DNA of 64,000 nt, from the NCBI RefSeq assembly GCF_003334385.1, contig NZ_QOWN01000002.1; one strand, written 5' to 3'. Source of the DNA: Escherichia coli. Its GTDB lineage: Bacteria > Pseudomonadota > Gammaproteobacteria > Enterobacterales > Enterobacteriaceae. Every line of letters begins with the position of its first letter. Positions within the stretch are counted from its first letter, which is position 1. Both the position numbers and the translations under genes were made by a program. Shown piece after piece: positions 10,472 to 41,147 of this stretch. Under the pieces are notes generated by a model that worked only from the letters and a program-made list of their open reading frames with translations, had not been told where the DNA came from and made no database searches.

Positions 10472-10647
10472 AACGACCTACGTTAATTACCTCATTGACG
10501 GCATGAAGTGTATCAAAATGAAATGAACAGGATATGTGCGACCACTCACAAATTAACTTTCAATACTTTCCAGAGTATCGTTGTTACAATTAAATACCTT
10601 TAAATATCAACAAGTTAAAGTATAAAAATCAGCATAAACCCTGATTT
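10472..10647. promoter_or_regulatory. Divergent tdcA / tdcR control region (tdc promoter; CRP, IHF and FNR dependent by established knowledge)
   Basis: 176-bp AT-rich gap between divergent tdcA and tdcR; individual binding sites not resolved by eye. Confidence 0.45.
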
Positions 10648-10659
10648 TTGTCAAAAAAA

Positions 10660-11004
10660 ATGACGGGGATAACCATATTTTATGGCGATAACATCATTCG
10701 TTATGTGGTTAATACAAAAAAGGGGCTGAGACCATATTTCAAGCAATTACCGGATAATTACCAAGCAAAATTTGAGTTAAATTTAATGAGCAAGTTCTCA
10801 AATTTTATTATAAATAAACCATTTTCAGTGATAAATAATGCGGCATGTCACATTTTTTCACGCTATTTGTTGGAGAACAAACATTTATTTTATCAATATT
10901 TTAAAATTTCGAATACATTTATTGATCATCTCGAACAATTGATTAACGTCAACTTTTTCTCTTCTGACAGGACGTCATTTTGTGAATGCAATCGTTTTCC
11001 ATAA
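10660..11004 (+). CDS. tdcR: Threonine dehydratase operon activator TdcR (small, AT-rich gene)
   Basis: ORF divergent from tdcA reading MTGITIFYGDNIIRYVVNTKKG...; very low GC; start choice (10648 vs 10660) uncertain. Confidence 0.6.
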   Translation: MTGITIFYGDNIIRYVVNTKKGLRPYFKQLPDNYQAKFELNLMSKFSNFIINKPFSVINNAACHIFSRYLLENKHLFYQYFKISNTFIDHLEQLINVNFFSSDRTSFCECNRFP

Positions 11005-11820: not shown

Positions 11821-13008
11821 ATGTTCCCTGTTTCATCAATTGGTAATGATATTAGTAGTGATTTAGTCCGTCGAAAAATGAATGACCTTCCTGAAAGCCC
11901 AACAGGAAATAACCTCGAAGCACTAGCACCAGGTATAGAAAAACTAAAACAGACCTCTATTGAAATGGTCACTTTACTTAACACGTTACAACCTGGTGGA
12001 AAATGCATTATCACTGGTGATTTTCAAAAAGAATTAGCGTACTTACAAAATGTAATTCTTTATAATGCCTCGTCTCTTCGTCTGGATTTTTTAGGTTATA
12101 ACGCCCAAATTATTCAACGATCGGACAATACTTGTGAACTTACCATTAATGAACCGTTAAAAAACCAGGAAATATCCACAGGTAATATCAATATTAATTG
12201 CCCATTAAAAGATATTTACAATGAAATCAGGAGGTTAAACGTAATTTTTAGTTGTGGGACTGGAGATATCGTTGATCTATCCTCTCTGGACTTACGTAAT
12301 GTCGATTTAGATTATTATGATTTCACAGATAAACATATGGCTAATACTATTTTAAATCCTTTTAAATTGAATTCAACAAATTTTACTAATGCCAACATGT
12401 TTCAGGTTAATTTTGTTAGTTCAACACAAAACGCCACAATCTCCTGGGATTATTTACTAAAAATAACGCCTGTTTTAATAAGCATTAGCGATATGTATTC
12501 TGAAGAAAAAATCAAGTTTGTCGAAAGTTGTTTAAATGAGCCTGGAGACATTACCGAAGAACAATTAAAAATTATGAGATTTGCAATTATAAAATCTATA
12601 CCAAGGGCAACTCTTACAGATAAATTAGAAAATGAATTAACAAAAGAAATATATAAAAGCTCATCGAAAATCATCAATTGCTTGAACAGAATTAAATTAC
12701 CAGAGATGAAAGAATTCTCATCAGAAAAAATATATGATTACATCGATATAATCATTGAAGATTATGAAAATATCAAAGAAAATGCTTATCTGGTCGTCCC
12801 CCAAATTAATTATACTATGGATTTAAACATAGAAGACTCTAGCTCAGAAGAGTTACTTTCAGATAATACCCTCGAGAAAGACGAAAATTCTCCGGACAAT
12901 GGCTTTGAGGTCGGGGAATATAACACATATGAAGCATATAACTCAGAGAAGCAATATTTTACCAGAGAGGACTATACGTATGATTACGACCTTTTAAATG
13001 CAATATAG
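11821..13008 (+). CDS. yhaC: Uncharacterised pentapeptide-repeat protein YhaC, 395 aa
   Basis: 395-aa AT-rich ORF; middle region shows 5-residue periodicity (SLDLR NVDLD YYDFT ... NTILN PFKLN STNFT NANMF QVNFV); acidic Tyr/Glu/Asp-rich C-terminus. Confidence 0.8.
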   Translation: MFPVSSIGNDISSDLVRRKMNDLPESPTGNNLEALAPGIEKLKQTSIEMVTLLNTLQPGGKCIITGDFQKELAYLQNVILYNASSLRLDFLGYNAQIIQRSDNTCELTINEPLKNQEISTGNININCPLKDIYNEIRRLNVIFSCGTGDIVDLSSLDLRNVDLDYYDFTDKHMANTILNPFKLNSTNFTNANMFQVNFVSSTQNATISWDYLLKITPVLISISDMYSEEKIKFVESCLNEPGDITEEQLKIMRFAIIKSIPRATLTDKLENELTKEIYKSSSKIINCLNRIKLPEMKEFSSEKIYDYIDIIIEDYENIKENAYLVVPQINYTMDLNIEDSSSEELLSDNTLEKDENSPDNGFEVGEYNTYEAYNSEKQYFTREDYTYDYDLLNAI

Positions 13009-31980: not shown

Positions 31981-32736
31981 ATGGAACGAGGCACTGCGTC
32001 TGGTGGTGCCTCTTTACTTAAGGAATTTCATCCTGTGCAAACCCTTCAGCAAGTTGAAAACTATACGGCGTTAAGTGAACGTGCCAGCGAATATTTATTG
32101 GCCGTGATCCGTAGCAAACCGAATGCCGTGATTTGCCTGGCGACCGGAGCCACGCCATTACTGACGTATCATTATCTGGTAGAAAAAATCCACCAGCAGC
32201 AGGTTGATGTCAGCCAGCTCACCTTCGTGAAGCTCGACGAATGGGTGGATCTGCCATTAACGATGCCAGGCACCTGCGAAACTTTCCTGCAACAGCATAT
32301 CGTGCAGCCGCTGGGGCTACGTGAAGACCAGCTCATCAGCTTTCGCTCCGAAGAGATAAATGAGACAGAGTGCGAACGGGTAACGAACCTGATTGCGCGC
32401 AAAGGCGGTCTGGATTTATGCGTTCTCGGATTGGGGAAAAACGGTCATCTTGGGCTGAACGAACCGGGAGAAAGCCTGCAACCGGCCTGCCATATCAGTC
32501 AACTTGATGCCAGAACACAGCAACATGAGATGTTAAAAACCGCGGGTCGCCCCGTGACTCGTGGGATCACCTTAGGCCTGAAGGATATTCTCAATGCCCG
32601 CGAAGTTTTGTTACTGGTGACTGGCGAAGGAAAGCAGGATGCGACAGATCGTTTTCTCACGGCTAAAGTCTCTACCGCTATCCCGGCTTCATTTTTATGG
32701 CTGCACAGTAACTTTATTTGTTTAATTAACACCTAA
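31981..32736 (+). CDS. agaI: Putative galactosamine-6-phosphate deaminase/isomerase AgaI (NagB family), 251 aa
   Basis: 251-aa ORF starting directly after the agaD stop; NagB-like. Confidence 0.9.
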   Translation: MERGTASGGASLLKEFHPVQTLQQVENYTALSERASEYLLAVIRSKPNAVICLATGATPLLTYHYLVEKIHQQQVDVSQLTFVKLDEWVDLPLTMPGTCETFLQQHIVQPLGLREDQLISFRSEEINETECERVTNLIARKGGLDLCVLGLGKNGHLGLNEPGESLQPACHISQLDARTQQHEMLKTAGRPVTRGITLGLKDILNAREVLLLVTGEGKQDATDRFLTAKVSTAIPASFLWLHSNFICLINT

Positions 32737-33136
32737 CCAGATGAAAAATTTGCTCAAAATGTTTAAATTAACTTATGTAACAGTCACGCATTATATTAAA
32801 TAACATTTGACTGGGTTGAACATAACGCCGATAGCAAAAGGAGTTATGTTCAACAATTTAATTTTAGATATACATATAACTTGTTCTATTAATAAATCAC
32901 CTCGTATTCTGACTCGCCCCCTGGCGCAGCAAAGTCAGGCATTTATACTCTTTTGAATACATAGAAAATTGATATCAATATAATGAAAATATCAAATATT
33001 TGCATATAAATATAATCTTAAAGTTCAGTCTATTTAATGTTCAATGAAATATTTCTGCCTGTATAATCTTTAAAGATGTTGAACATATATTCACATTAAA
33101 TATGATTATGTACTTGTTACAAGGATAAGGTTATAT
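32737..33136. promoter_or_regulatory. AT-rich 400-bp region upstream of yraH (probable H-NS-silenced fimbrial promoter)
   Basis: Very low GC with A/T tracts; promoter elements not individually resolved. Confidence 0.35.
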
Positions 33137-33721
33137 ATGAATAAAGTTACAAAAACAGCTATTGCGGGCTTACTTGCGCTTTTCGCAGGTAATGCCGCTG
33201 CAACCGATGGTGAAATAGTTTTTGATGGCGAGATTTTAAAATCCGCTTGTGAAATCAATGACTCTGATAAGAAAATTGAAGTTGCTCTTGGTCACTATAA
33301 TGCCGAACAGTTTCGTAATATTGGCGAGCGTAGCCCAAAAATTCCATTCACTATTCCTTTAGTTAACTGCCCAATGACTGGGTGGGAGCACGATAACGGC
33401 AACGTTGAAGCGTCTTTCCGTCTATGGCTGGAAACGCGAGATAATGGCACCGTCCCTAACTTCCCTAATCTGGCAAAAGTAGGCTCTTTTGCTGGCATAG
33501 CGGCAACAGGTGTGGGTATCCGTATTGACGATGCGGAAAGCGGAAACATTATGCCACTGAATGCTATGGGCAATGATAACACGGTTTATCAGATCCCGGC
33601 GGAATCCAATGGTATTGTCAATGTTGACCTCATCGCTTACTACGTATCAACCGTAGTTCCATCAGAAATCACCCCAGGGGAAGCAGACGCTATCGTTAAC
33701 GTAACGCTGGATTACCGTTAA
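33137..33721 (+). CDS. yraH: Fimbrial major subunit-like protein YraH, 194 aa
   Basis: Signal peptide MNKVTKTAIAGLLALFAGNAAA then fimbrial subunit-like sequence with C-terminal aromatic residue. Confidence 0.9.
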   Translation: MNKVTKTAIAGLLALFAGNAAATDGEIVFDGEILKSACEINDSDKKIEVALGHYNAEQFRNIGERSPKIPFTIPLVNCPMTGWEHDNGNVEASFRLWLETRDNGTVPNFPNLAKVGSFAGIAATGVGIRIDDAESGNIMPLNAMGNDNTVYQIPAESNGIVNVDLIAYYVSTVVPSEITPGEADAIVNVTLDYR

Positions 33722-33726
33722 TACGT

Positions 33727-33765
33727 TAGGGCGTTATCTGACCTGTCAGATAACGCCCTTTTCCT
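33727..33765 (+). terminator. Rho-independent terminator/attenuator after yraH
   Basis: agggcgttatctga-cctg-tcagataacgccct perfect hairpin followed by TTTTCC. Confidence 0.6.
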
Positions 33766-33800
33766 TCCTCTTTCTCGTTGTATCAGGTTGAAAAATAACT

Positions 33801-34496
33801 ATGTCAAAACGAACATTCGCGGTGATATTAACCTTGTTGTGTAGCTTCTGTATTGGCCAGGCGCTTGCAGGAGGAATCGTTTTACAGCGAACGCGAGTGA
33901 TCTATGATGCCAGCCGCAAAGAGGCTGCGTTACCTGTCGCAAACAAAGGCGCAGAAACGCCTTATTTACTGCAATCATGGGTAGATAATATAGATGGTAA
34001 AAGCCGTGCCCCATTTATTATAACCCCACCGCTATTTCGTCTTGAGGCTGGCGATGACTCATCACTGCGAATTATTAAAACAGCTGATAACCTGCCTGAA
34101 AATAAAGAGTCGCTGTTCTACATTAATGTTCGTGCCATTCCAGCAAAGAAAAAATCAGATGATGTTAATGCTAACGAGTTGACGCTGGTATTTAAAACAC
34201 GGATCAAAATGTTTTATCGCCCCGCACACCTGAAGGGACGGGTAAACGATGCGTGGAAATCACTGGAATTTAAACGTAGTGACCATTCACTCAATATATA
34301 TAACCCAACTGAATATTACGTCGTATTTGCCGGACTGGCAGTCGATAAAACCGATCTCACAAGCAAAATTGAATATATCGCGCCCGGAGAACATAAACAG
34401 TTACCACTTCCTGCATCTGGCGGAAAGAACGTGAAATGGGCTGCGATCAATGATTATGGCGGCAGTTCCGGGACAGAAACTCGTCCACTGCAATAA
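33801..34496 (+). CDS. yraI: Periplasmic fimbrial chaperone YraI (PapD-like), 231 aa
   Basis: Signal peptide plus PapD-family chaperone-like sequence; position between subunit and usher. Confidence 0.9.
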
Positions 34497-34524
34497 AAAA
34501 TATAAAAACACAGGTCATCAGGGA

Positions 34525-37041
34525 ATGCCACAACGACACCACCAGGGACATAAACGCACACCGAAACAGTTGGCGCTCATCATCAAACGTTGTTTGCCGA
34601 TGGTGCTCACTGGCAGCGGCATGCTTTGCACTACCGCTAACGCCGAAGAGTATTATTTCGACCCCATTATGCTGGAAACCACAAAAAGTGGTATGCAAAC
34701 AACCGATCTGTCGCGTTTTTCAAAAAAATATGCACAACTACCAGGAACTTATCAGGTTGATATCTGGCTGAATAAAAAGAAGGTTTCACAGAAAAAAATT
34801 ACATTTACCGCCAATGCAGAGCAACTTCTGCAGCCACAGTTTACGGTAGAACAACTACGTGAGCTGGGGATTAAGGTGGATGAAATCCCGGCGCTGGCTG
34901 AAAAAGATGACGATAGCGTGATCAACTCGCTTGAACAAATCATTCCCGGTACAGCTGCTGAATTTGATTTCAATCATCAGCAACTTAATTTGAGCATTCC
35001 CCAAATTGCACTGTACCGTGATGCAAGAGGTTACGTCTCCCCTTCTCGTTGGGACGATGGTATACCAACGCTGTTTACCAACTACTCGTTTACAGGTTCT
35101 GATAACCGTTACCGCCAGGGCAATCGTAGCCAACGACAGTACCTGAATATGCAAAATGGTGCTAATTTTGGCCCCTGGCGATTACGCAACTATTCCACAT
35201 GGACACGCAACGATCAGACATCAAGCTGGAATACCATCAGTAGTTATTTACAACGTGATATCAAGGCGTTGAAGTCTCAGTTGCTTCTGGGAGAAAGCGC
35301 CACCAGCGGCAGTATTTTTTCCAGCTACACCTTTACTGGCGTGCAACTCGCTTCCGACGATAATATGTTGCCAAACAGCCAGCGCGGATTTGCCCCAACG
35401 GTACGCGGTATCGCAAACAGTAGTGCAATCGTGACTATCAGGCAAAATGGTTATGTGATCTATCAAAGCAACGTGTCAGCGGGTGCCTTTGAAATTAACG
35501 ATCTCTACCCCTCTTCCAACAGCGGCGATTTAGAAGTCACGATTGAAGAAAGTGACGGTACACAACGTCGCTTTATCCAGCCTTATTCTTCATTACCCAT
35601 GATGCAGCGACCTGGGCATCTAAAGTATAGCGCGACCGCTGGACGCTATCGCGCTGATGCAAACAGTGATAGCAAGGAACCCGAATTTGCTGAAGCCACG
35701 GCAATATATGGTTTGAATAATACTTTTACGCTGTATGGCGGCCTGCTCGGTTCTGAAGATTATTATGCGCTGGGGATCGGTATCGGCGGCACACTTGGCG
35801 CACTGGGCGCGTTGTCGATGGATATCAACAGAGCTGACACCCAATTCGATAACCAGCACTCTTTTCATGGCTATCAATGGCGTACGCAGTACATCAAAGA
35901 TATCCCGGAAACCAACACCAATATCGCTGTCAGCTACTATCGCTATACCAACGATGGCTATTTTAGTTTTAATGAAGCCAATACCCGCAATTGGGACTAT
36001 AACAGTCGCCAAAAAAGTGAAATTCAATTCAACATCAGCCAGACAATATTTGATGGGGTAAGTCTGTATGCCTCCGGTTCGCAGCAAGACTATTGGGGCA
36101 ATAACGATAAAAACAGGAATATCTCTGTTGGGGTTTCCGGCCAGCAATGGGGAGTTGGTTACAGCCTGAATTATCAATACAGCCGCTACACTGATCAAAA
36201 TAATGACCGCGCACTCTCTTTGAATCTCAGTATTCCGTTAGAACGCTGGTTACCGCGTAGCCGGGTTTCCTATCAGATGACCAGCCAGAAAGATCGCCCA
36301 ACCCAACATGAAATGCGTCTTGATGGCTCACTGCTGGATGATGGTCGCCTGAGCTATAGCCTGGAACAAAGTCTGGATGACGATAACAACCATAACAGTA
36401 GCCTGAACGCCAGTTACCGTTCACCTTATGGCACCTTCAGTGCCGGATACAGCTACGGTAATGACAGCAGCCAATACAATTACGGCGTTACCGGCGGCGT
36501 GGTTATCCATCCTCATGGCGTGACGCTCTCGCAATATCTGGGCAACGCTTTTGCGCTTATCGATGCTAACGGAGCATCTGGCGTGAGGATACAAAACTAT
36601 CCGGGGATTGCTACCGATCCTTTTGGCTATGCAGTGGTTCCTTATCTCACAACTTATCAGGAAAACCGTCTCTCGGTAGATACTACGCAGCTGCCCGATA
36701 ACGTCGATCTTGAACAAACAACACAGTTTGTGGTGCCCAACAGAGGTGCAATGGTAGCGGCGCGTTTCAACGCCAATATCGGTTATCGCGTACTTGTTAC
36801 AGTCAGCGATCGCAACGGTAAACCGTTGCCCTTTGGCGCTCTTGCCAGCAACGATGATACGGGGCAACAAAGTATCGTCGATGAGGGCGGCATACTATAT
36901 CTCTCTGGGATATCGAGTAAATCACAAAGCTGGACTGTACGCTGGGGAAATCAGGCAGATCAACAATGTCAGTTTGCTTTCAGTACACCGGATTCAGAAC
37001 CTACAACCTCTGTATTACAAGGCACAGCGCAGTGCCATTAA
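34525..37041 (+). CDS. yraJ: Outer-membrane fimbrial usher YraJ, 838 aa
   Basis: Large beta-rich ORF with signal peptide and usher-type conserved C-terminal Cys pair; start trimmed from the 863-aa track ORF. Confidence 0.9.
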   Translation: MPQRHHQGHKRTPKQLALIIKRCLPMVLTGSGMLCTTANAEEYYFDPIMLETTKSGMQTTDLSRFSKKYAQLPGTYQVDIWLNKKKVSQKKITFTANAEQLLQPQFTVEQLRELGIKVDEIPALAEKDDDSVINSLEQIIPGTAAEFDFNHQQLNLSIPQIALYRDARGYVSPSRWDDGIPTLFTNYSFTGSDNRYRQGNRSQRQYLNMQNGANFGPWRLRNYSTWTRNDQTSSWNTISSYLQRDIKALKSQLLLGESATSGSIFSSYTFTGVQLASDDNMLPNSQRGFAPTVRGIANSSAIVTIRQNGYVIYQSNVSAGAFEINDLYPSSNSGDLEVTIEESDGTQRRFIQPYSSLPMMQRPGHLKYSATAGRYRADANSDSKEPEFAEATAIYGLNNTFTLYGGLLGSEDYYALGIGIGGTLGALGALSMDINRADTQFDNQHSFHGYQWRTQYIKDIPETNTNIAVSYYRYTNDGYFSFNEANTRNWDYNSRQKSEIQFNISQTIFDGVSLYASGSQQDYWGNNDKNRNISVGVSGQQWGVGYSLNYQYSRYTDQNNDRALSLNLSIPLERWLPRSRVSYQMTSQKDRPTQHEMRLDGSLLDDGRLSYSLEQSLDDDNNHNSSLNASYRSPYGTFSAGYSYGNDSSQYNYGVTGGVVIHPHGVTLSQYLGNAFALIDANGASGVRIQNYPGIATDPFGYAVVPYLTTYQENRLSVDTTQLPDNVDLEQTTQFVVPNRGAMVAARFNANIGYRVLVTVSDRNGKPLPFGALASNDDTGQQSIVDEGGILYLSGISSKSQSWTVRWGNQADQQCQFAFSTPDSEPTTSVLQGTAQCH

Positions 37042-37051
37042 GGATAAAAAA

Positions 37052-38143
37052 ATGAAAAGAGCGCCTCTTATAACAGGTCTTTTGTTGATATCCACATCCT
37101 GCGCTTATGCCTCCTCAGGAGGGTGTGGAGCCGACAGCACTAGCGGTGCGACAAATTACAGCAGTGTGGTTGATGATGTTACGGTGAACCAGACAGATAA
37201 CGTGACAGGACGGGAGTTTACCTCTGCAACGCTAAGTAGCACTAACTGGCAATACGCCTGTTCCTGCTCTGCGGGTAAGGCAGTTAAACTTGTCTATATG
37301 GTCAGCCCCGTACTTACCACCACTGGACATCAGACAGGATATTACAAACTCAATGACAGCCTGGATATTAAAACCACATTACAGGCAAACGACATTCCAG
37401 GACTCACAACCGACCAGGTTGTCTCTGTTAACACCCGATTCACACAGATAAAAAACAACACGGTATATTCTGCTGCAACCCAAACGGGTGTTTGCCAGGG
37501 TGATACGTCTCGTTATGGACCCGTTAATATTGGTGCGAACACCACCTTTACCCTGTATGTCACCAAGCCATTTCTCGGCTCGATGACCATTCCGAAAACG
37601 GATATTGCCGTCATTAAAGGCGCGTGGGTCGATGGAATGGGAAGCCCGTCTACAGGTGACTTCCATGATTTAGTCAAGTTATCGATTCAGGGAAATCTCA
37701 CCGCCCCACAGTCGTGCAAAATTAATCAGGGCGATGTTATTAAGGTTAATTTTGGATTCATCAATGGTCAGAAGTTTACCACCCGCAATGCCATGCCAGA
37801 CGGTTTTACTCCAGTAGACTTTGATATCACTTATGACTGTGGTGATACTTCAAAGATTAAAAACTCGTTGCAAATGCGCATCGACGGTACAACTGGGGTA
37901 GTAGACCAGTACAACCTGGTCGCCAGGCGAAGAAGTTCAGACAATGTGCCCGATGTCGGTATTCGTATTGAAAATCTCGGCGGCGGAGTTGCAAATATTC
38001 CTTTTCAGAACGGTATCCTTCCCGTTGATCCTTCCGGGCATGGCACCGTCAATATGCGCGCCTGGCCAGTTAATCTGGTCGGTGGTGAGCTGGAAACAGG
38101 AAAATTTCAGGGCACAGCCACCATTACCGTCATCGTGCGGTAA
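37052..38143 (+). CDS. yraK: Fimbrial adhesin-like protein YraK, 363 aa
   Basis: MKRAPLITGLLLISTSCAYA signal peptide then two-domain adhesin-like sequence; track ORF extended 86 codons upstream. Confidence 0.9.
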   Translation: MKRAPLITGLLLISTSCAYASSGGCGADSTSGATNYSSVVDDVTVNQTDNVTGREFTSATLSSTNWQYACSCSAGKAVKLVYMVSPVLTTTGHQTGYYKLNDSLDIKTTLQANDIPGLTTDQVVSVNTRFTQIKNNTVYSAATQTGVCQGDTSRYGPVNIGANTTFTLYVTKPFLGSMTIPKTDIAVIKGAWVDGMGSPSTGDFHDLVKLSIQGNLTAPQSCKINQGDVIKVNFGFINGQKFTTRNAMPDGFTPVDFDITYDCGDTSKIKNSLQMRIDGTTGVVDQYNLVARRRSSDNVPDVGIRIENLGGGVANIPFQNGILPVDPSGHGTVNMRAWPVNLVGGELETGKFQGTATITVIVR

Positions 38144-38185
38144 AAGAAGACGTTGCGTTTTGATTAACGCAACGCTTCGGCACTG

Positions 38186-39046
38186 TTACCCCTGCTGCTC
38201 CAGCGCATACTTATACAGCGCATTTTTCTTCACGCCGTGAATTTCTGCGGCCAGCGCCGCCGCTTTTTTCAGCGGCAGTTCTGCCTGTAGCAGCGCCAGC
38301 GTGCGCAGGGCATCGGCGGGTAAGTCTTCTTCCTGTGCTTTATGACCTTCGACAATCAGCACCATTTCGCCTTTGCGACGGTTTTCATCTTCCTTTACCC
38401 ACGCCAGCAGCTCGCCAACGGGCGCGCCGTGAATGGTTTCCCAGGTTTTGGTCAGCTCACGCGCCAGAACCACGTAGCGGGATTCGCCTAATACCGCAAC
38501 GATATCTTCCAGGCTATCTAACAGACGGTGGGTAGATTCATAAAAAATCAGCGTGCGCGGCTCCGCTTCAATGGCTTTTAGCGCATCACGGCGGCCTTTT
38601 GATTTGGCAGGTAAAAAGCCTTCGTAACAGAAACGGTCAGAGGGTAAACCCGCTGCGCTTAACGCAGTGATAGCAGCACACGGCCCGGGTAGCGGCACCA
38701 CGCGGATCCCCGCTTCACGGCAGGTACGCACCAGATGGTAGCCAGGATCGTTAATTAGCGGCGTTCCGGCATCGGAAACCAGCGCAATGTTTTGCCCCTC
38801 TTGCAGCTTCGCCAGCAGCGTTTCAGCTTTTTGTTGTTCGTTATGGTCGTGCAGCGCAAACAACCGGGCATTAATCCCAAAATGTTGCAGCAATAAACCG
38901 GTGTGACGAGTATCCTCGGCGGCAATCAGATCAACGGCCTGTAATACCTCTAACGCACGCTGGGTGATATCCGCCAGATTGCCGATTGGCGTCGGTACAA
39001 TGTAAAGCTGGCCCTGAGAATTATCCGCCGATTGGTGTTGTTTCAT
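38186..39046 (-). CDS. rsmI: 16S rRNA C1402 2'-O-methyltransferase RsmI (YraL), 286 aa
   Basis: 286-aa ORF of the tetrapyrrole-methylase-like family (…[22 protein letters not shown]…). Confidence 0.95.
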
Positions 39047-39110
39047 TGTGTCGTCCGTATTGCCGATTTAATATTGAGCATTGCGTAAAAAAAATATCAC
39101 TGGATACATT

Positions 39111-41147
39111 ATGGTACCCTCAACATTTTCTCGTTTGAAAGCCGCGCGTTGTCTGCCTGTTGTTCTGGCAGCCCTGATTTTCGCCGGTTGTGGCACCCAT
39201 ACTCCCGATCAGTCCACTGCTTATATGCAGGGCACGGCGCAGGCTGATTCTGCCTTTTATCTTCAGCAGATGCAGCAAAGCTCTGATGATACCAGGATCA
39301 ACTGGCAATTACTCGCCATTCGTGCACTGGTGAAAGAAGGTAAAACCGGGCAGGCGGTTGAGTTGTTTAACCAACTACCGCAAGAACTGAACGATGCTCA
39401 GCGTCGCGAGAAAACACTGCTGGCGGTAGAGATTAAACTGGCGCAGAAAGATTTTGCTGGCGCGCAAAACTTGCTGGCGAAAATCACACCTGCCGATTTA
39501 GAACAAAACCAGCAAGCGCGTTACTGGCAGGCAAAAATCGATGCCAGCCAGGGGCGTCCTTCCATTGATTTACTGCGCGCGTTAATTGCTCAGGAACCGC
39601 TGCTTGGCGCGAAAGAAAAACAGCAGAATATTGATGCCACCTGGCAGGCGCTCTCCTCCATGACTCAGGAACAGGCGAATACGCTGGTGATCAACGCCGA
39701 CGAAAATATTCTGCAAGGCTGGCTGGATCTGCAGCGCGTCTGGTTTGATAACCGTAACGATCCCGACATGATGAAAGCCGGGATCGCCGACTGGCAGAAA
39801 CGTTATCCGAACAATCCGGGCGCGAAAATGCTGCCAACGCAGTTGGTTAACGTAAAAGCGTTTAAACCAGCCTCGACCAACAAAATCGCCCTGCTGTTGC
39901 CACTGAATGGCCAGGCAGCGGTATTTGGTCGCACTATTCAGCAAGGCTTTGAAGCGGCGAAAAATATCGGCACTCAGCCAGTGGCAGCTCAGGTAGCTGC
40001 CGCACCTGCCGCAGACGTAGCTGAACAACCTCAGCCGCAAACCGTGGATGGCGTTGCCAGCCCGGCACAAGCCTCGGTTAGCGATCTGACCGGTGAACAG
40101 CCTGCAGCCCAGCCGGTGCCTGTAAGCGCCCCGGCGACAAGCACCGCAGCGGTAAGCGCACCCGCAAATCCATCCGCAGAGCTGAAAATCTACGATACCT
40201 CATCACAACCACTTAGCCAGATCTTAAGCCAGGTTCAGCAGGATGGCGCGAGTATTGTGGTCGGTCCGTTGCTGAAAAATAACGTTGAAGAGTTGCTGAA
40301 GAGCAACACTCCGCTGAACGTACTGGCACTGAACCAGCCGGAGAATATCGAAAATCGCGTCAATATTTGTTACTTCGCGCTTTCACCGGAAGACGAAGCG
40401 CGCGATGCAGCGCGTCATATTCGTGACCAGGGTAAACAAGCGCCGCTGGTGCTGATCCCACGCAGTTCATTGGGCGATCGCGTAGCCAATGCGTTTGCGC
40501 AAGAGTGGCAGAAACTGGGCGGCGGCACCGTTCTGCAACAAAAATTTGGTTCCACCAGCGAATTACGCGCGGGTGTTAACGGCGGTTCTGGTATTGCTTT
40601 AACGGGTAGCCCGATTACTCTCAGAGCGACAACCGACTCCGGCATGACGACCAACAATCCAACGCTGCAAACCACGCCAACCGATGACCAGTTCACCAAT
40701 AATGGCGGTCGTGTCGATGCGGTGTACATTGTGGCAACGCCGGGTGAAATCGCTTTTATCAAACCGATGATCGCCATGCGTAACGGTAGCCAGAGCGGTG
40801 CAACGCTGTACGCCAGCTCCCGCAGTGCGCAAGGGACCGCTGGCCCGGATTTCCGACTGGAGATGGAAGGCTTGCAGTACAGCGAAATCCCGATGCTGGC
40901 AGGCGGTAATCTACCGTTAATGCAGCAGGCACTCAGCGCGGTGAATAACGATTATTCACTGGCTCGCATGTATGCGATGGGCGTCGATGCCTGGTCGCTG
41001 GCAAATCATTTCTCACAAATGCGCCAGGTTCAGGGTTTTGAAATCAACGGTAATACCGGAAGCCTGACGGCTAACCCGGATTGCGTGATTAACAGGAACT
41101 TATCATGGCTACAGTACCAACAAGGTCAGGTAGTCCCCGTCAGTTAA
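39111..41147 (+). CDS. lpoA: Outer-membrane lipoprotein LpoA (PBP1A activator), 678 aa
   Basis: Lipoprotein signal with lipobox …[10 protein letters not shown]-like N domain, Ala/Pro-rich linker, C-terminal binding-protein-like domain. Confidence 0.95.

Follow-up and report, generated by a model that had tools for sequence, protein, structure and literature searches.

In the pap and CFA/I fimbrial operons, subunit ratios are set by a terminator or stabiliser hairpin that follows the major subunit gene (PMC5927463 and its references). We analysed a 64-kb window of Escherichia coli K-12 DNA, to whose coordinates all positions below refer, and focused on positions 32737-38143. They hold the yraHIJK operon, which encodes a chaperone-usher pilus of the classical type and belongs to the Lpf-like gamma group. 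This segment is 100% identical to E. coli K-12 derivatives, in which RefSeq annotates exactly four genes, yraH/yraI/yraJ/yraK. Like pap and CFA/I, yra has a stem-loop directly after the pilin gene and before the assembly genes, and by analogy an excess of pilin mRNA would be expected. In pap, the experimentally demonstrated mechanism also includes a 5' hairpin and processing by RNase E upstream of papA; yra needs no upstream processing because yraH is the first gene. Overall, we are fairly confident that the locus is best explained as a pilus operon silenced by H-NS in which the hairpin after yraH favours pilin mRNA. The operon and its H-NS-bound upstream region are already annotated, published, and catalogued, and hairpins that follow the pilin gene are a textbook route to more pilin than machinery; the present finding is in this respect mostly book-keeping.

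Among the described systems, the Lpf operon of Salmonella and pathogenic E. coli (lpfABCDE) shares with yra the gene order of pilin, chaperone, usher, and adhesin. It also provides the closest named NCBIfam models for the chaperone YraI (LpfB, 1.3e-57, the best NCBIfam model of any) and for the adhesin YraK (LpfD). For the usher YraJ, two models are nearly tied, an unnamed usher model (NF011740, 741.3 bits) and LpfC (739.6 bits). However, the scores are far below the equivalog cut-offs (194.8 against 360 bits for LpfB, 739.6 against 1271 for LpfC, and 75.6 against 412 for LpfD), so Yra is a separate family and a relative of Lpf rather than its orthologue. The yra operon also differs in having no fifth gene (the minor subunit gene lpfE), and the structural alignment of YraK with LpfD has an identity of 19%.

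The cryptic fimbrial operons of K-12 (sfm, ycb/elf, yad, ybg, yeh, and yfc) belong to the same machinery class, are poorly expressed in the laboratory like yra, and are induced together with it in shared transcriptome studies. Their AT-rich spacers upstream of the genes (folD/sfmA, ssuE/elfA, yadN/folK, ybgD/gltA, yehD/yehE, and yfcV/sixA) are H-NS-bound promoter islands as well (PMC3661553). yraHIJK itself is counted among the "cryptic but functional" fimbriae of K-12 (Korea et al., 2010, as cited in PMC5717340 and PMC8516962). In contrast to these operons, yra is a minimal set of four genes and its usher falls in another clade, 'Gamma*', together with UshC (PMC5717340). The UshC operon of enteropathogenic E. 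coli and sequence type 131 encodes the usher most closely related to YraJ within E. coli. The two ushers are reported to be mutually exclusive, and the UshC-associated adhesins have been modelled as LpfD- or CupB6-like (PMC5717340).

The four genes are flanked by agaI, whose end is at 32736, and by rsmI, which is convergent (38186-39046, minus strand):

33137-33721, plus strand: yraH, 194 amino acids, major pilin with a Fimbrial domain at residues 27-193
33801-34496, plus strand: yraI, 231 amino acids, periplasmic chaperone with PapD_N and PapD_C, closest named model LpfB
34525-37041, plus strand: yraJ, 838 amino acids, outer-membrane usher with PapC_N, Usher, and PapC_C
37052-38143, plus strand: yraK, 363 amino acids, predicted LpfD-like two-domain tip adhesin

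All four reading frames are open with zero frameshifts, and each protein matches its family profile from end to end. The Fimbrial domain of YraH (PF00419) scores 8.6e-28, and the YraH N-terminus reads as a donor-strand-like, alternating hydrophobic pattern (GEIVFDGEIL). YraI carries PF00345 (5e-41) and PF02753 (1e-11), whereas YraJ is covered at full length by PF13954 (3.6e-45), PF00577 (7e-216), and PF13953 (7.6e-19). The chaperone, usher, pilin, and two-domain adhesin that define the classical chaperone-usher system are each present. Signal peptides were judged by eye, without a predictor; in all four proteins, a hydrophobic core lies between a positive n-region and a cleavage site of the AXA type (AAA|T, ALA|G, ANA|E, and AYA|S). 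The longest open reading frames of yraJ and yraK begin further upstream than the genes, at 34450 and 36794, respectively. A first-pass annotation of this DNA had described a complete operon of subunit, chaperone, usher, and adhesin-like genes without frameshifts and with intact signal peptides; the domain content, the RefSeq annotation, the end-to-end profile matches, and the by-eye reading of the N-termini all agree with that description.

The element that carries our explanation is located between the first two genes:

33728-33769, plus strand: intercistronic hairpin, stem 33728-33759 with 14 perfect pairs (7 G-C), loop CCTG, tail TTTCCTTCCT

The hairpin begins 7 nt past the yraH stop codon, and 41 nt separate it from the yraI start. 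The 86-nt stretch that contains it (33715-33800) has a folding energy of -26.2 kcal/mol (z = -5.1), and none of 200 shuffles was as stable. A strong hairpin right after yraH had already been noted in the first-pass annotation and is confirmed here, although the end given there (33765) takes in part of the tail. A simple terminator scan accepts the hairpin; as the scan draws the stem, 6 of the next 8 nt are T, and the U run is broken after four U. An Rfam search over 32000-39200 returned a chance-level hit only. With four exceptions, each of 3281 genomes has the hairpin junction at a single place. Because it is a single-copy sequence, the hairpin is not a dispersed repeat, and an origin from such a repeat or a repetitive extragenic palindromic (REP) element was rejected.

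In the E. coli strains sampled, a 12-bp core of the hairpin is invariant, and K-12 has two extra basal pairs. The stem is kept in E. whittamii, where an A-to-G change results in a G-U pair and the loop is longer. The orthologous operon of Citrobacter sp. MGH106, whose usher is 69% identical and which is also next to rsmI, has an 11-bp hairpin of unrelated sequence at the same place, without a T-rich tail (CATTCCCCC). In these comparisons, the hairpin is conserved as a structure while its sequence diverges.

We extended the comparison to the loci of YraJ relatives (38-89% identity) that a search of one genome per species had returned, and included the K-12 locus. Seventy loci in which the pilin gene precedes the chaperone gene with a gap of at least 30 nt were counted. 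Stems were searched with loops of 3-10 nt and one mismatch allowed, and the significance was estimated from 100 dinucleotide shuffles. A stem of at least 8 pairs was found between the pilin and chaperone genes in 57 of the 70 loci, and the hairpin was significant (matched by at most 5 of 100 shuffles) in 52 of the 70. The latter count is a lower bound, because the finder misses hairpins with long loops or bulges such as that of L004. A T-rich tail (5 or more T among the next 9 nt) follows 27 of the 52 significant hairpins, compared with 10-17% expected. Stems of 16 bp occur in the Enterobacter and Lelliottia loci L036, L037, L057, and L060. The hairpin between pilin and chaperone genes is therefore a near-universal feature of the family, structural and positional, with unrelated sequences between loci. 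This is as expected of an RNA element that uncouples the expression of the pilin from that of the assembly genes. In chaperone-usher loci that have yet to be annotated, the hairpin may also point to the gene of the major subunit.

From its position and predicted fold, it is plausible that the yra hairpin is an attenuator that sets the stoichiometry of pilin to assembly proteins, a reading well supported by the comparison with related loci. By analogy with the described fimbrial operons, we propose that it acts as a partial intrinsic terminator, a 3' stabiliser of the yraH mRNA, or both. Acting on the RNA, the hairpin with its UUUUCCUU tail would stop a fraction of the transcripts and would shield the 3' end of the short yraH message, leaving more mRNA for the pilin than for the chaperone, usher, and adhesin. 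Such an excess would fit the need for about 1000 pilins per usher and per tip adhesin. The good Shine-Dalgarno sequence before yraH and the poorly spaced one before yraI would add to this bias. Any termination at the hairpin would be partial, because yraH, yraI, and yraJ are induced together; the changes in two RNA-seq studies were 4.2-, 7.5-, and 5.4-fold, and 1.99, 1.93, and 2.45 on a log2 scale.

The same co-induction bears on the improbable case that the hairpin is a full terminator, in which yraH would form its own unit and yraIJK would depend on another promoter, located within or downstream of yraH. The very stable fold of the 86-nt stretch would suit such a terminator, as would the effect of BolA overproduction, which reportedly raised yraH but not the other yra genes. 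A promoter-like sequence, TTGACG-16-CATTAT, is present inside yraH at 33525-33552, but it carries no statistical weight because the promoter scan gave fewer sites than the shuffles (8 against 11.3). Moreover, the 41-nt gap between the hairpin and yraI has no promoter-like site, yraH, yraI, and yraJ are co-regulated in both transcriptome studies, and PMC3946193 gives the transcription unit as yraHI.

A tentative alternative places the effect entirely in mRNA decay. Here the hairpin would be a decay barrier rather than a terminator; RNase E would cut the full yraHIJK transcript downstream of it, the distal part would be degraded, and the yraH message would accumulate because the hairpin blocks 3'-5' exonucleases. 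The break in the U-tract after four U speaks for this possibility, as does the finding that about half of the significant hairpins in the relatives, including that of Citrobacter, have no T-rich tail. Differential decay is also documented for the fimbrial operons papBA and CFA/I (PMC5927463). The 6 T in 8 nt that pass the terminator scan and the roughly 3- to 5-fold enrichment of T-rich tails across the family speak instead for termination. The two mechanisms are not exclusive, and their outcome, an excess of pilin mRNA, would be identical.

The second part of our explanation, silencing by H-NS, concerns the region upstream of yraH:

32737-33136, plus strand: agaI-yraH spacer, 400 bp, G+C 0.27, published H-NS-bound promoter island and RpoD-holoenzyme site

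In the chromatin immunoprecipitation data of Kahramanoglou and Oshima (ChIP, here ChIP-chip), H-NS binds the agaI/yraH region, a promoter island of 325 bp (Panyukov and Ozoline, PMC3661553, Table 1). In vitro, RpoD holoenzyme alone binds the spacer at a site that overlaps an H-NS site from systematic evolution of ligands by exponential enrichment (SELEX; Shimada et al., PMC3946193, Table 3). The published binding data thus show that the spacer binds RNA polymerase without an activator and is coated by H-NS. We infer that this coat holds the operon nearly silent in laboratory culture. An activator-independent promoter beneath an H-NS coat is the standard silencing picture. Transcripts of yra would appear once this repression is lifted or circumvented, as in the host or upon BolA overproduction. 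The AT-rich promoter region and the variable presence within the species are features of H-NS-silenced loci, and both are found here.

Published expression data are consistent with an operon that is off in standard cultures. In the terminator sequencing (Term-seq) of wild-type MG1655 (LB at an optical density of 0.4 and 2.0, and M63), there is no sense-strand entry for yraH or yraI (PMC7815308, supplements), and a sense-strand 3' end at the hairpin is missing because the operon is silent under these conditions. The same data contain two antisense features, both on the minus strand: a 3' end within yraH (33506; MG1655 3287795) and a Rho-dependent termination region within yraI (34464; MG1655 3288753) (PMC7815308). 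Antisense transcription therefore enters the silent operon from downstream, and this pattern of antisense ends with no sense ends is typical of H-NS-covered DNA. Outside such cultures, yra transcripts were detected in the urine of patients with A/B1 isolates and were higher in Shiga toxin-producing E. coli from cases of haemolytic uraemic syndrome, and a stress transcriptome showed the yra genes rising along with other cryptic fimbrial operons. The H-NS silencing that had been suggested from the base composition agrees with binding data that were already in the literature. The operon is not silent in the strict sense; it is listed as cryptic but functional, and transcripts are found in patient urine, in strains from haemolytic uraemic syndrome, and upon BolA overproduction.

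Several points weigh against the combined explanation of H-NS silencing and a pilin-favouring hairpin. We found no experiment on the yra hairpin in the literature. Its U-tract is interrupted and an upstream A-tract is absent, so termination may be weak. The joint rise of yraH, yraI, and yraJ shows that there is read-through and is silent on the absolute ratios of the messages. The yra genes are reportedly derepressed in an hns mutant, although the literature consulted for this work contained no report of yra derepression upon hns deletion. The high-affinity H-NS motif TCGATAAATT is absent from the spacer at up to 2 mismatches; this is no argument against H-NS, because H-NS also binds generic AT-rich DNA that is rich in TpA steps. 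Finally, PMC3661553 compares three ChIP studies, and one of them, the Grainger set, has no call at this site (code K, not A).

The composition of the spacer matches this mode of binding. Its TpA steps amount to 12.8 per 100 nt against 4.6 in the window, and its G+C content is 0.27 against 0.51, the lowest of any 400-nt stretch in the 64 kb; only 0.1% of the 400-nt windows are as low. The yra genes have a G+C content of 0.44-0.48, whereas the flanking genes have 0.50-0.55. Two more 400-nt stretches of the window, 12342-12741 and 10550-10949, are equally AT-rich (27% G+C), and the nearby tdcA/tdcR and yhaC regions are H-NS-bound promoter islands in the same table as agaI/yraH (PMC3661553). Within the spacer, three features can be distinguished:

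32815-32854, plus strand: AU-rich hairpin 79 nt past the agaI stop, 12+2 pairs, -18.9 kcal/mol, z = -5.0, then AAUUUAAUUUU
32969-32997, plus strand: TTGATA-17-TCAAAT, promoter proposed from genomic SELEX (PMC3946193)
33079-33106, plus strand: TTGAAC-16-TATGAT, promoter-like site from the promoter scan, 31 nt before the yraH ATG

The hairpin at 32815-32854 is probably the terminator of the aga operon and lies outside yra control, so the first part of the 400-bp region (about 120 bp) would belong to the upstream aga operon. By alignment, E. whittamii conserves only the last ~170 bp of the spacer, including the Shine-Dalgarno region of yraH. The first-pass annotation had treated the whole 400-bp region as an AT-rich silencing region; its length is exact and its G+C content is 27%, but the part attributable to yra is shorter. 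In the alignment, the SELEX-proposed promoter is conserved neither in E. coli 13E0780 and CFSAN051542 nor in E. whittamii. The proximal promoter-like site falls within the block conserved in E. whittamii, where its counterpart is CTGAAC-16-TATCAT; the scan that returned it yielded the 8 sites mentioned above.

The 11-mer TGTTGAACATA, with up to 1 mismatch, has three copies in the 64-kb window (32814-32824, 32845-32855, and 33077-33087), all of them in the spacer. The first two form the arms of the probable aga terminator and the third overlaps the -35 element of the conserved promoter-like site. Whole-window shuffles gave at least 3 matches in 11 of 100 cases, though without such clustering, and the trio could be an operator or chance. 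A protein on these sites, two of which are located ~230-260 bp upstream of the third, could loop the DNA and act with or against H-NS. We consider it unlikely that the spacer holds operators for a specific regulator, or that the yraH attenuator is conditional rather than fixed; if true, either would mean a dedicated, undescribed on-switch for yra.

The same motif raises another idea, namely that the spacer is an invertible switch like fimS. The perfect 11-bp inverted repeats TATGTTCAACA (32845-32855) and TGTTGAACATA (33077-33087) enclose 221 bp with the SELEX-proposed promoter, and the restriction of the three copies to the spacer would suit a switch. However, no recombinase gene is adjacent, two of the copies are accounted for as arms of the aga terminator hairpin, and the repeats are only partly retained in E. 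whittamii. In none of 5426 complete E. coli genomes did a query with 32845-33087 reverse-complemented reach 80% coverage; all assemblies therefore carry the segment as K-12 does. With no inverted genome and no adjacent recombinase, the switch is effectively refuted and we give it next to no credence. Regulation through RfaH was likewise rejected, since the ops element GGCGGTAGnnTG has no match with up to 2 mismatches in the leader at 32737-33136.

The distribution of the operon was examined in the same set of complete genomes. The yra locus is present in 3523 of the 5426, and 3264 hold at least 80% of it in one place. The agaI-rsmI site is empty in 1823 by a joined-flank query (flanks at most ~900 bp apart). 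Comparison of Nissle, the sole yra-minus junction that was read, with K-12 gives the segment that is present or absent; near its right end, the terminator scan returned a further hairpin:

32706-38190, strand not applicable: yra presence/absence segment, with Nissle and K-12 diverging after ...TATGGCTGCA and before CCTGCTGCTCCAG
38150-38175, minus strand: yraK-rsmI hairpin, 10 bp between the convergent stops, CTTCTTTTAC tail on the minus strand only

In Nissle, a 49-bp spacer separates agaI and rsmI. The borders of the indel are inside the last codons of both genes, and the C-termini of AgaI and RsmI therefore differ between strains with and without yra. In yra-minus strains such as Nissle, AgaI ends in ...HNHFTCVIDEMCRR, where strains with yra have ...HSNFICLINT, and RsmI has one additional residue. 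The flanks are too close for an operon in the 1823 genomes, so the mutual exclusion of YraJ and UshC is not an allelic replacement there. A replacement of yra by UshC at agaI-rsmI was accordingly rejected on the close flanks and the Nissle spacer, and the single partial match was an IS1-mediated deletion to mtr. The hairpin at 38150-38175 is likely the rsmI terminator and marks the end of the yra unit; without a U-tract on the plus strand, it may also stop yra transcripts.

Insertions of IS1, IS3, and IS1203 occur in yraH, yraI, yraJ/yraK, and upstream of yraH in unrelated strains. In strain EC25, a deletion bounded by IS1 extends from yraH as far as the mtr region, and the sampled O157:H7 strain has an agaI pseudogene, interrupted by a stop codon. 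In Shigella flexneri, both yraH and yraJ have become pseudogenes. Beyond E. coli, close orthologues were found only in E. whittamii and one Citrobacter, and the next usher relatives are at most 48% identical.

Such losses could be taken to mean that the operon is a decaying relic whose hairpin and AT-rich spacer have no current role. Its absence from a third of the genomes' agaI-rsmI sites (1823/5426), the recurrent insertions in yraH, yraJ/K, and upstream, the S. flexneri pseudogenes, and the poor laboratory expression are in line with this. Nevertheless, the ratio of nonsynonymous to synonymous divergence (dN/dS) against E. whittamii is 0.07-0.12 in all four genes, at a dS of 0.67-0.88, indicating that all four are under purifying selection. 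The frames are intact in K-12 and thousands of genomes, the hairpin and the proximal promoter block are kept in the sister species, and transcripts are found in patient samples. A relic is therefore very unlikely in our view, and we retain the explanation of an H-NS-silenced operon with a pilin-favouring hairpin.

The last gene, yraK, had been called adhesin-like, and structure prediction supports this. Residues 3-360 of YraK align to positions 8-356 of the 359 in the LpfD model. The Pfam Fimbrial (pilin) domain is confined to the C-terminal half (211-362), and the N-terminal residues ~21-205 form the receptor-binding domain. Among solved structures, the sole sequence match by phmmer is LpfD of adherent-invasive E. 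coli (5AFO, E = 1e-11). An AlphaFold2 model built with 43 homologues has a mean predicted local distance difference test (pLDDT) score of 84, and in Foldseek its best match is also 5AFO (8.7e-20), followed by CupB6, FimH, CsuE, and PapG. Because the model fold matches these proteins, YraK is predicted to be a two-domain tip adhesin of the LpfD type. Between E. coli and E. whittamii, its receptor-binding half has evolved faster than any other part of the operon, with an identity of 82% against 90% in the pilin half. The dN/dS is 0.13 in the receptor-binding half and 0.06 in the pilin half, and the faster half is still constrained.

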